Assembly: GCA_002371235.1 (NCBI GenBank)
Contig: DFGN01000002.1
Span: forward strand, 4,774-68,773
Reading direction: 5' to 3'
Length of the DNA: 64,000 nt
Source: Candidatus Saccharibacteria bacterium UBA3749
GTDB lineage: Bacteria > Patescibacteriota > Saccharimonadia > Saccharimonadales > Saccharimonadaceae
Shown here: positions 6,082 to 63,233 of the stretch, piece by piece
How the letters are laid out: every line of letters starts with the position of its first letter
How positions within the stretch are numbered: the stretch's first letter is position 1
Notes under the pieces: model-generated
What the model was told of the DNA's origin: nothing
Database searches by the model: none
Seen by the model: the letters and a program-made list of their open reading frames with translations, nothing else
Position numbers and translations under genes: made by a program

Positions 6082-6157
6082 TGGTGGAGTATAGGAGATT
6101 CGAACTCCTGACCTACTGATTGCGAACCAGTCGCTCTACCAACTGAGCTAATACCCC
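6082..6157 (-). tRNA. tRNA-Ala(CGC)
   Basis: 76-nt cloverleaf GGGGTAT...ATACTCCACCA; G3:U70 Ala identity pair; anticodon loop TTCGCAA; GTTCGAATC T-loop; encoded CCA. Confidence 0.97.
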
Positions 6158-60583: not shown

Positions 60584-61660
60584 CTATACCATGTTTTCCA
60601 GATAACTGTCAATAAACCCATCGATCTTTCCGTCTAATACTGCCTCCGGGTCGGTCTCTTCATATCCCGTGCGCGTATCCTTCACTAACTTATATGGTTG
60701 TAGTACGTAATTTCGAATCTGCTGTCCCCATCCAGCCGATTCGCCCGCCCGAAGTTCTCCGATTGTCGCCGCATGCTGTTCTAGCTGCATCTGCGCCAGT
60801 TTGCCACGTAAAATCTCCATCGCCTTTTCTTTATTCTGGTGTTGACTACGTTCATTCTGAATCGCCACCACAGTATTAGTAGGCAAATGTGTAATCCTCA
60901 CCGCCGAATCAGTCGTATTGACTCCCTGTCCACCGTGTCCACCACTGTGATATACGTCAATCCTAAGATCTTTCTCATCGATTACAACATCAGTCTCTGC
61001 TCTAATAATAGGCAAAATCTCTACTAGCGCAAATGAGGTCTGGCGCAAATTATTCGCATTAAAAGGCGACAATCGCACCAAGCGATGTACTCCGTGTTCA
61101 GATTTCAAAAACCCATAGGCATTAATACCAGTAATCTCATAAACCGCTGTTTTGATCCCAGCTTCTTCACCAACCACTCTCTCGAGGCAACTAGCTTTCC
61201 AGCCCTTCCTTTCAAAAAATCTCAAATACATTCTCTCGAGCATCCCCGCCCAATCCATTGCTTCAGTACCACCAGCACCGGAAGTAATCCTAATAATTGC
61301 ATTTTCACTATCATACGGCCCCTGAAATCTCAGACTCTTCCGTAGCTCCGTAAACTCATCTTCCATTGCCTGAATCTGTTCGCCAAATTCTTCTTTCATA
61401 TCATCATCCGAAATCTTCATTAGTTCCCGCAAATCCTCACTTTGCGTCCGCATCAATTCCCATGGCTGTACCTCATCGGACAAACGAGCTAATTCCTGAT
61501 TCTTCGCCGTAGCTTCTTCCACATTACGCCAAATCTCTGGTTCCGCCACCTCCTTCTCTAATTCCGCAATGCGTGATAATTTGTTCGAAATCTCTAATTT
61601 CTCATAAGCCTTCAAAAATTCTTCTGTAAAACCATCTAAACGTTTTTCTAATTCTTGCAT
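60584..61660 (-). CDS. prfB: peptide chain release factor 2, no programmed frameshift
   Basis: SPF motif (RLSPFNA), GGQ, IRNYVLQPY; ORF continuous from the start. Confidence 0.97.
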   Translation of the reverse strand: MQELEKRLDGFTEEFLKAYEKLEISNKLSRIAELEKEVAEPEIWRNVEEATAKNQELARLSDEVQPWELMRTQSEDLRELMKISDDDMKEEFGEQIQAMEDEFTELRKSLRFQGPYDSENAIIRITSGAGGTEAMDWAGMLERMYLRFFERKGWKASCLERVVGEEAGIKTAVYEITGINAYGFLKSEHGVHRLVRLSPFNANNLRQTSFALVEILPIIRAETDVVIDEKDLRIDVYHSGGHGGQGVNTTDSAVRITHLPTNTVVAIQNERSQHQNKEKAMEILRGKLAQMQLEQHAATIGELRAGESAGWGQQIRNYVLQPYKLVKDTRTGYEETDPEAVLDGKIDGFIDSYLENMV

Positions 61661-61683
61661 AAAAACATTATAGCATACCGCTT

Positions 61684-61715
61684 AATAAAATCGCCCCTTG
61701 CGGGGCAGATTTTAT
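61684..61715 (-). terminator. terminator after 83-aa gene
   Basis: aataaaatc-gcccc-ttgc-ggggc-a-gattttatt. Confidence 0.75.
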
Positions 61716-61963
61716 TGTGTGAGGTGCCAGGACAAATCACGCGAATTAAATTCGAGTGTCACTTTTTCCCGGCCGACCAGCACGTCGAAAATGTGAAGTG
61801 CCACCCCGCCCACAAATCGAATTTGTGTGCGAAGAAGCTCTGTAACTTCGGTTTCCGATTCGCCACGTCGCCTAAAAGTAAGTGGCTGACATGGCGTCAT
61901 TTCGTAACCGAACAAGGCCATCACTTCGACCTGCTCGTCATTAGTTTTGTTAAAGTTTTTCAT
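61712..61963 (-). CDS. small hypothetical protein, possibly DUF6504-like
   Basis: P.TFRRRG...HIFDV...LEFNSRDLSWHL; SD AAGGAG; family assignment from memory only. Confidence 0.6.
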   Translation of the reverse strand: MKNFNKTNDEQVEVMALFGYEMTPCQPLTFRRRGESETEVTELLRTQIRFVGGVALHIFDVLVGREKVTLEFNSRDLSWHLTQ

Positions 61964-62100
61964 AAAGACTCCTTTAAATTAAAATTTATTAGAGTCATTT
62001 ATGCGAGCCTGATTTATTGGCTCCTAGCACGAGGCATAAATGACGATACCAGGTGCCTTTAACTTTTCTCAACGTCAGTGACCGAAGTATAACGTGAGTA
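61964..62100 (-). promoter_or_regulatory. structured leader with alternative SD-sequestering folds
   Basis: TGTTATAAT at 62114-62106; 11-bp IR at 61994-62004/62034-62044; cUUCGg hairpin. Confidence 0.5.
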
Positions 62101-62192
62101 ATTTTATTATAACACGCAGTAAGGCCCAGTATAACCTTGTTTTTACGAAAAATATATAGTATCATTTACCAATAAGAATATTACAAAATATT

Positions 62193-63233
62193 ATGAATAT
62201 TTGGCAAGAATTACCCCAACCTTTTCTTATTCTGGCTCCAATGGAAGGTGTCACAGACATTATTTTTCGTCAAGTCATCGCCAAGGCTGGTCGGCCCGAT
62301 CTATTCTATACTGAATTTACCAATGTGTCTTCTTACGCGTCCGAAAAAGGTCGCCAAAATGCCCTCGAACGCCTTCAAGTCGCCCCTACTGACTCCCCAA
62401 TTATCGCTCAAATCTGGGGCAAAAACCCTGAGCATTTTTCGGAAGTTTCTTCCGCGCTTGCTTCACTCGGTTTTTCCGGAGTAGACCTAAATTTCGGCTG
62501 CCCCGACAAGCATGTTAATAAGGCCGGTGGTGGCGCCGCCATGATTAAGACGCCTGAGCTTGCTGTTCAATGTTTCCGCAACGCTCAAAGTAGTACCAAT
62601 TTACCAGTCTCAATCAAAACTCGCCTCGGCTGGTCTAACCCTACAGAATATGAAACTTGGTTGTCAGTTTTACTCGCCGAACATCCAGCCGCTCTTACTG
62701 TCCATCTACGTACCAAAAAAGAGATGAGCAAAGTACCCGCTCATTATGAACTCATACCTAAAATTGTTGCCCTTCGCAACCAAATTTCACCCGACACTAA
62801 ACTCATCATAAATGGCGATATAAAGGATCGTATCCACGCCTTAGAGCTCTATAAAAAGCATCCCGGCGTTGATGGTTTTATGATTGGTCGTGGCGTCTTC
62901 GCTAATCCTTACTGCTTTACCGACCATACTCCTATCCGCGAAGAATTAATGGAGCTTTTAAAAATGCATCTAGACTTATACGAAAAATACGCAAATGGGT
63001 CTTCAAGAAGCGTTGCGACCAACGAGAAGCTCCTGGCGAGCAAACCTTGTAATAACGAGTACGAGCGAAGCGGCGACGAGAAAAAACATTTGCGTAACCT
63101 GTCATATGAGCCCTTAAAGCATTTCTTCAAAATATACGTCAACAATTTCCCCGGCGCAAAAGAACTTCGCGCCAAACTTATGGAAACCCGCTCCATCCCC
63201 GAAGCAAGGAAAAATCTCGATAATCTTAAATAA
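62193..63233 (+). CDS. dus: tRNA-dihydrouridine synthase (Dus family)
   Basis: LAPMEGVTD, VDLNFGCP, IKTRLG, LTVHLRT, INGDI, MIGRG. Confidence 0.93.
   Translation: MNIWQELPQPFLILAPMEGVTDIIFRQVIAKAGRPDLFYTEFTNVSSYASEKGRQNALERLQVAPTDSPIIAQIWGKNPEHFSEVSSALASLGFSGVDLNFGCPDKHVNKAGGGAAMIKTPELAVQCFRNAQSSTNLPVSIKTRLGWSNPTEYETWLSVLLAEHPAALTVHLRTKKEMSKVPAHYELIPKIVALRNQISPDTKLIINGDIKDRIHALELYKKHPGVDGFMIGRGVFANPYCFTDHTPIREELMELLKMHLDLYEKYANGSSRSVATNEKLLASKPCNNEYERSGDEKKHLRNLSYEPLKHFFKIYVNNFPGAKELRAKLMETRSIPEARKNLDNLK
62988..63096 (+). repeat. in-frame palindromic insertion inside dus
   Basis: perfect 10-bp terminal IR tacgcaaatg/catttgcgta enclosing several hairpins and GCGAAGC. Confidence 0.6.

Follow-up and report, generated by a model that had tools for sequence, protein, structure and literature searches.

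Is the 229-bp gap between two divergent genes in a genome of the Saccharibacteria home to a regulatory RNA and, if so, how might such an RNA act and on what gene product? In the window (the whole 64,000-nt stretch of DNA that was analysed), dus (plus strand, 62193-63233, Pfam Dus) and a small gene, an open reading frame (ORF) of 83 aa on the minus strand (61712-61963), face away from each other across this gap. A first-pass annotation of the locus proposed that the minus strand of the gap encodes an unclassified cis-regulatory RNA that controls the small gene by sequestering its Shine-Dalgarno (SD) sequence. To our knowledge, very few regulatory RNAs have been recognised in Patescibacteria, in which gene regulation is little understood. 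Here we describe the architecture and conservation of this leader in a source genome of 719 kb that is 97% complete, the two structures between which it is predicted to choose, and the protein family and polymerase operons to which it is linked.

Results

The gap houses a structured leader with its own predicted promoter

The leader, about 136 nt in length and encoded on the minus strand (as are all the elements of this section), consists of three hairpins (P1, P2 and P3) that are followed by a switch tail. It is preceded, at a distance of 7 nt, by an extended -10 box (TGTTATAAT, 62106-62114), the sequence of which, with its TAnnnT hexamer, is kept in relatives: among 29 homologous leaders, the hexamer is located 5-8 nt ahead of the first P1 pair in all 29, and the TG extension is present in 23. 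On the basis of this element, the transcription start site (TSS) is predicted at about 62099-62100, just at the start of P1. Since the -10 box lies so shortly before P1 in every homologue, the predicted TSS is upstream of all helices, which speaks against the possibility, raised together with the original proposal, that transcription begins downstream of the helices.

P1 is the 5'-terminal hairpin (CUCACGUUAUAC-UUCG-GUCACUGACGUUGAG, 62068-62098). It has a covarying stem and, exactly as first described, a C-UUCG-G cap. The apical part of P1 (A-N-AC-[tetraloop]-GU-C-M-C-U) is invariant among homologous leaders, the tetraloop itself being variable (UUCG, UUAG, CUAG, UACG or UUUG). P1 is joined by an A-rich linker, J1/2 (GAAAAGUUAA, 62058-62067), to P2 (62026-62057), in which an outer (GGCAC/GUGCU) and an inner (GGUA/UGCC) stem, both backed by covariation, carry a loop (UCGUCAUUUA) that displays an invariant GUCAUU (62044-62039). 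P3 (GAGCC-loop-GGCUC, 62005-62023), which also covaries, is directly followed by the 14-nt switch tail (GCAUAAAUGACUCU, 61991-62004), a segment with two alternative partners. Between the tail and the ribosome-binding region (GGAGUCUUUAUG, 61961-61972; SD at 61972-61969 and AUG at 61963-61961) lies an AU-rich linker (61973-61990) that contains a small hairpin within the loop of the sequestor and is variable in sequence among relatives. The minimum free energy (MFE) of the 176-nt stretch was -44.1 kcal/mol compared with -30.5 +/- 3.7 kcal/mol for shuffled sequences (z = -3.65), and none of 200 shuffles was as good. In this genus, J1/2 can also pair weakly with codons 3-4 (AACUUU) of the small gene (duplex energies of -3.9 to -5.7 kcal/mol, with z < -1.5 in 16 of 29 leaders); as this pairing is not kept outside the genus core, we count it as a minor feature of one lineage. 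At the other end of the small gene, an intrinsic terminator (GCCCCGCAAGGGGC, followed by a U-rich run; 61692-61707) separates it from prfB, which indicates that the small-gene unit is monocistronic in the source genome.

The leader is conserved as an RNA structure

We determined the distribution of the leader by sequence and by structure. BLASTN detected it in 20 of the 36 further genomes of the genus, and 24 other families gave no match; when the upstream regions were aligned with MAFFT, the similarity was seen to begin exactly at the -10 box. A covariance model built on P1, P2 and P3 (R1) found a single copy in the source genome, the second-best match (E = 0.85) being located within a coding region; searches with R1 and with a P1-loop pattern (4 matches, vs 2 in the control) revealed no extra copies there. 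In the family, R1 matched 13 of 151 sampled genomes, representing 6 of 95 genera. Among 150 genomes of the order its matches were confined to the leader's own family, save for one (L148), a P1-like hairpin without a homologous gene 3' of it, which we judged to be a chance match. The gene 3' of every leader found encodes a homologue of the 83-aa protein, with one leader copy per genome. A metagenome scan with the 14-mer ACTTCGGTCACTGG recovered the motif in 2 of the 80 stretches examined, the other matches being due to chance, and no variants of the pseudoknot described below were gained.

The first-pass annotation had called for a covariation test among homologous leaders, and this test gave a clear result. 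The 29 leaders (alignment A8) are mutually related sequences from four genera of one Saccharibacteria family and were fitted to the model, which favours structure; in this alignment 94.3% of cells were paired, compared with 27-39% when partners were slid, and 20 of the 33 pairs had changed on both sides, a number that none of 500 shuffles reached. A MAFFT alignment of 19 leaders that had not been fitted to the model gave a similar picture: 90.9% of cells were paired (28-39% with slid partners) and 12 pairs had changed on both sides, again a number reached in 0 of 500 shuffles. In the 29 leaders, both-side changes were seen in 7 of 9 pairs of P1 (93% of cells pairing), in 9 of 9 pairs of outer and inner P2 taken together, and in 4 of 5 pairs of P3, where 100% of cells pair and where the stem reads GAGGUC/GACCUC in other genera. 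These alignments support P1, both parts of P2, and P3 each as an RNA helix. They did not bear out the proposed pairing of AGGCA (62058-54) with TGCCT (62036-32) as a competing element: both strings exist, but their pairing is absent in relatives, in which covariation supports GCAC/GUGC and GGUA/UGCC instead.

We considered whether the conservation could stem from a DNA operator, or from an overlapping coding sequence on either strand, and hold this to be very improbable. An ORF of 135 aa (61655-62062, plus strand) and one of 56 aa (62165-61995, minus strand) do overlap the region, and the invariant strings could be operator half-sites; however, the stems change in sequence yet keep their pairing, which is a signature of RNA, the start of the 56-aa ORF lies ahead of the predicted TSS, and the plus-strand ORF lies opposite a well-conserved gene. 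The latter ORF, which has a TTG start and runs antisense to both the small gene and the leader, is probably spurious, because conservation tracks the minus-strand gene and the RNA pairs. Overall, comparative sequence analysis confirms that the flagged stretch encodes a genuine folded RNA that is conserved.

The leader belongs to no described RNA family

Since the leader had been regarded as unclassified, with fragments faintly recalling the TPP riboswitch, an Rfam search had been suggested. At gathering scores, the 4227 models of Rfam 15 yielded a tRNA (6085-6157) as the sole match in the whole window. When the same models were applied in a relaxed scan to the 601 nt around the leader (61650-62250), the best match over the leader was to a snoRNA model (17 bits, E = 0.89). 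The TPP model (RF00059), which incorporates the conserved core in J3-2/P4-P5, failed to match window-wide at gathering score and over the 601 nt up to E = 10; likewise, neither ZTP nor any other riboswitch model gave a match up to E = 10 in the 601 nt, none of the riboswitch models matched 19 related loci up to E = 0.1, and the thermometer models of Rfam did not match over the leader. That the leader is a divergent form of a known riboswitch, either TPP or, owing to the GGUCACUGGC string, ZTP/pfl, is therefore scarcely credible: the likenesses consist only of short strings noticed by eye (UGAGA and ACCUG, as well as GUCACUGGC, which resembles the ZTP string GUGACUGGCG), and the gene context, a translesion-polymerase accessory gene (see below), fits neither ligand. 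The suggested resemblance to TPP thus finds no support. The literature searched on DUF6504, on riboswitches of Saccharibacteria and on ImuB riboswitches does not describe this RNA. The leader RNA family is new, in that neither Rfam 15 nor this literature contains it; its kind, that of a structured translational leader, is a known one.

The switch tail has two predicted, mutually exclusive partners

The first of the two partners of the tail is the ribosome-binding region itself. CAUAAA-GACUCU of the tail pairs with GGAGUC-UUUAUG, i.e. with the stretch that runs from the SD through the spacer to the start codon. The core of this sequestor had been recognised at the outset as GACTC (61996-92) opposite the SD-containing GGAGTC (61972-67); the complete sequestor is longer than that and covers the start codon too. 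When folded in isolation, the tail-RBS hairpin forms in every homologue, at energies of -8 to -15.6 kcal/mol, and the MFE folds of the full leaders have a paired SD in 27 cases and a paired AUG in 25 cases out of 29. The cognate RBS is also the best partner of the tail among the 49 SD-bearing starts in the window (-13.5 kcal/mol vs a mean of -6.2 kcal/mol, sd 2.3).

The second partner is the loop of P2. GTCATTTATGC (62044-62034) is perfectly complementary to GCATAAATGAC (62004-61994) over 11 bp and encloses GAGCC/GGCTC (62023-19 / 62009-05), as had been pointed out by the first-pass annotation. This complementarity stands, although the part that is conserved across genera amounts to only 6-8 bp, GUCAUU(UA)/(UA)AAUGAC, and the 11 bp are better read, as judged by predicted folding energies, as an H-type pseudoknot between loop and tail than as a nested helix. 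A nested 11-bp helix that replaces P2 was rejected, and the pseudoknot preferred, because such a replacement costs about 12 kcal/mol on average. In other genera, moreover, P2 consists of an uninterrupted 9-bp stem and a 13-nt loop bearing GUCAUU, which fits a pseudoknot and not the replacement of P2. The loop:tail pairs form in 97.8% of cells of the 29 leaders, in which the tail core AAUGACU is invariant, and show no both-side changes (in class 1, as we refer to the leaders of the present type, 4 pairs are invariant and 4 have wobble changes only); we thus infer the formation of the pseudoknot from this complementarity and from the analogy with the class-2 leaders described in the next section.

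With respect to energy, the loop:tail duplex is at -14.8 kcal/mol and the tail:RBS duplex at -13.5 kcal/mol at this locus; the means over homologues are -9.9 kcal/mol and -12.6 kcal/mol, respectively. The two duplexes share nucleotides and are thus mutually exclusive structures, as in the expression platform of a riboswitch. When the loop:tail helix was forced in a nested fold, the SD tetramer was still predicted to be paired in 27 of 29 leaders, which implies that the release concerns mainly the AUG and the spacer. Overall, the proposal of an unclassified cis-regulatory RNA with an SD-sequestering switch holds up well: the RNA covaries and has no match in Rfam, its predicted fold sequesters both SD and AUG, and the tail has an alternative partner.

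A second leader class repeats the layout with unrelated sequences

The small protein is present in 87 of 151 genomes of the family, most of which have a different leader of about 170 nt, henceforth referred to as class 2 (loci L130-L147, alignment A7). In most genera of the family, it is this leader that stands before the genes of paralogs or orthologs of the small protein. Class 2 is unrelated to class 1 in sequence, has the same kind of extended -10 box and contains many more invariant nucleotides. In class 2, a covarying hairpin presents a loop, AGAAACG, that is complementary to an invariant tail, CGUUUCU, and the 3' end of this tail, UCUCAAA, pairs with the SD region UUUGAGGA. Compensatory changes (CAAA/UUUG, CUAU/AUAG, CG/CG and CUU/AAG) are found in the flanks of the class-2 sequestor. 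An extra long-range helix pairs AUCAUUC with GAAUGAD (codons 2-3) and, by eye, extends to AUCAUUCAU over AUGAAUGAU, so that the AUG is covered. Rfam detected nothing but tRNAs in the class-2 loci and in those of an intermediate form (L034/L125, L132, L035/L128 and L036), in which P1 of class 1, including its apical motif, is joined to the 3' half of class 2. Inspection by eye also indicates that the 5' segment of class 2, GAUACWCACUGG, is like the P1 loop AUAC[UUCGGU]CACUGG without the mini-hairpin. The two classes thus serve the same gene family and have the same competing loop:tail and tail:SD layout, but differ in the sequences of loop and tail. Of the indirect evidence for a two-state model, this recurrence of one logic in unrelated sequences is the strongest.

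The recurrence of this layout also bears on whether any effector is needed. The leader might damp translation constitutively and stabilise the 5' end, so as to keep a mutagenesis-related protein low, or be an RNA thermometer, the sequestor of which melts with temperature; the upstream hairpins would then serve folding or stability only. The sequestor is indeed the MFE state in essentially all homologues, a 5'-terminal hairpin is a classic stabiliser of mRNA, and the energies of the sequestor hairpin given above, together with its bulges, are in the range of thermosensors. We nevertheless regard an effector-free leader as quite unlikely, since it leaves unexplained why the P2 loop is invariant and complementary to the tail, why the apical motif of P1 does not vary and why the competing layout recurs in class 2; an SD/AUG hairpin is present here, but conserved P1-P3 and a loop:tail complementarity are not expected of an RNA thermometer.

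The regulated gene encodes a relative of polymerase-associated small proteins

We next turn to the product of the small gene. Neither the 83-aa protein of the window nor its family-level homologues had a match in Pfam. An AF2 model built from a 15-sequence alignment (pLDDT 88) is all-beta with seven strands, and structure and profile comparisons were of little help: a profile search of PDB sequences with the protein family returned nothing meaningful, Foldseek against the PDB gave no match for the model at E <= 0.001, and the best VIA-align wide match (Z = 5.7, cystatin-like sheets) is uninformative. A query of the ESM Atlas yielded Saccharimonadota clusters only, plus a 0.82 lead to DUF6504. 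Metagenomic homologues of the small protein number several hundred (603 proteins). A profile search with the small-protein family collected 198 representative clusters, and hhalign linked the family of the window protein (A4) to the distant members (A6) with a probability of 98.9% (E = 2.6e-17). The model of DUF6504 (PF20114), which we take to be ImuB-C, matched 5 of 14 of these distant relatives, in all cases below the cut-off (best E = 4e-4, 21 bits vs 24.2).

We then looked at the genes around the distant members. In most of 80 such loci, which come largely from other Patescibacteria, an ORF of 400-450 aa comes next on the strand of the small gene and usually overlaps the stop of the latter, and all six of these ORFs that were sampled carry IMS and IMS_C and are, therefore, Y-family polymerases. 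Of four genes sampled upstream of the distant small genes, three encode S24 peptidases and one YdjM. An operon partnership with a Y-family polymerase, as is characteristic of ImuB-C, is thus found in the distant homologues, and likewise in two species of the same genus as the source genome (loci L020 and L021), where a Y-family polymerase gene is located directly 3' of the small gene. Taken together, profile similarity and gene neighbourhood suggest that the 83-aa protein is a distant relative of the small proteins encoded beside Y-family polymerases (henceforth 'ImuB-C-like').

Operons of the order lexA-imuB-C-polY occur in Geobacter sulfurreducens and other bacteria and are damage-induced in Geobacter, as stated by Timinskas & Venclovas (2019, PMC6511836). 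The order S24 peptidase, small protein and Y-family polymerase in the distant relatives is the same as that in the operons covered there. Unlike in those operons, the small gene stands alone in the source genome, and a folded leader is found where a LexA-controlled promoter would be expected.

At L020 and L021, a terminator-like hairpin (L020:1863-1930 and L021:1147-1068) is found between the small gene and the polymerase gene, and there is no evident promoter before the SD of the polymerase. This arrangement suggests control of the polymerase by read-through or attenuation from the same leader.

Discussion

How the leader may gate translation

We consider it probable that a cis-acting leader RNA of the architecture described here gates translation initiation of the small ImuB-C-like gene. 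Transcription would start at about the first base of P1, and the leader would fold into P1, P2 and P3 and end in the 14-nt tail with its two mutually exclusive partners. In the default OFF state, which is predicted to be thermodynamically preferred, the tail would occupy the SD, the spacer and the AUG and so block binding of the 30S subunit. In the ON state, the tail core AAUGAC (plus UAAA in this genus) would pair with GUCAUU(UA) of the P2 loop, and the resulting H-type pseudoknot would free the start codon and most of the RBS. An effector would set the balance between the two states by stabilising or disrupting the pseudoknotted fold, and translation would be switched ON by one that favours the pseudoknot. 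Such an effector might be a small molecule, in which case the leader would be a true riboswitch, or a protein that recognises the invariant apex of P1. The direction of switching, the existence of an effector and the link to DNA-damage tolerance, the last through the gene family, are what we infer.

With respect to the small-molecule effector, the leader possesses a conserved, structured domain with covariation, as is required of an aptamer. It precedes a single small-protein family and not several functionally related genes that would point to a ligand, and the gene context suggests no obvious one. Invariant unpaired nucleotides are few across genera, fewer than in most metabolite aptamers. 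The closest parallels are the translational riboswitches with an H-type pseudoknot (SAM-II, preQ1-II and guanidine-III), which are likewise short 5' leaders in which a loop pairs with a 3' tail, act on the RBS and not on a terminator, and have their conservation concentrated in the pseudoknot. In these riboswitches the pseudoknot itself usually contains the SD, and the ligand consequently turns translation off, whereas in the present leader the pseudoknot takes up the anti-SD tail, so that its formation would turn translation on. Unlike these riboswitches, the leader also has two extra hairpins (P1 and P3), and it has no match in Rfam.

The leader also resembles those of ribosomal proteins and other autoregulatory leaders, in which the binding of a protein shifts the fold of the leader: it is a structured 5' leader of one gene family, it sequesters the SD and the AUG, and it has an invariant hairpin motif that is a candidate protein site. 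The encoded ImuB-C-like protein, the Y-family polymerase or another RNA-binding factor might accordingly bind the P1 apex (A-N-AC..GU-C-M-C-U) and shift the balance with no small molecule involved, which we view as a possible, though on the whole doubtful, explanation. The most conserved element of class 1 and of the intermediates is a short hairpin with a free tetraloop, and GAUACWCACUGG of class 2 appears, by eye, to be the same loop without the mini-hairpin, a pattern that is typical of protein sites; conserved nucleotides in the junctions are few, and each genome has a single copy of the leader, which is linked to one gene family only. However, the regulated gene does not encode a ribosomal protein, and the 83-aa protein shows no indication of RNA binding, its best fold match being the uninformative one reported above. 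We also know of no feedback control by ImuB-C or UmuD-type accessory proteins, which counts against control by a protein.

Possible RNA control of a mutasome accessory gene where LexA seems to be missing

The proposed control concerns a mutasome accessory gene in a lineage that seems to lack LexA. We found no S24 peptidase or LexA in the 97%-complete source genome, and none in three further genomes of the genus. S24-like matches occur in 42 of 151 genomes of the family, few of which have both a LexA-like length and a full-length match. From these searches of genome sequences, the SOS repressor seems to be largely missing from this lineage. We tentatively propose, while considering it rather unlikely in its full form, that the class-1 and class-2 leaders are true sensor RNAs that replace LexA in LexA-less Saccharibacteria, in which a signal of damage or replication stress (a small molecule or a damage-induced factor) would turn ON translation of an accessory protein of a translesion polymerase. 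If this were so, a mutasome component would for the first time have been found under the control of an RNA, and in some species the downstream polymerase gene might be controlled as well. If a signal is indeed sensed, the leader would illustrate how error-prone DNA synthesis is controlled in ultrasmall episymbionts that lack the classical SOS repressor, and either a candidate for an orphan riboswitch or a new regulatory pair of protein and RNA would be gained. A natural translational switch from this phylum also has practical appeal, given the lack of inducible expression tools for Patescibacteria (PMC11665869).

The polymerase gene of the source genome and prfB

The source genome has a single Y-family polymerase, which is encoded on another contig (G000 contig C15, L117:1480). 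Upstream of this gene, an 86-aa plus-strand ORF was checked as a paralog of the small protein and is not one; a 104-aa minus-strand ORF (L117:1048-1362, contig C15), located just upstream of the polymerase gene, overlaps it. The polymerase ATG is preceded by TGATATAAT and a further 7 nt, and the mRNA looks leaderless. The layout is the same as that of prfB in the window (61660-60584, minus strand), which follows the terminator of the small gene and consists of one ORF (358 aa) that lacks a programmed +1 frameshift: upstream of prfB (61660-61690, minus strand), TGCTATAAT ends only 6 nt before the ATG, and the prfB mRNA therefore looks leaderless too.
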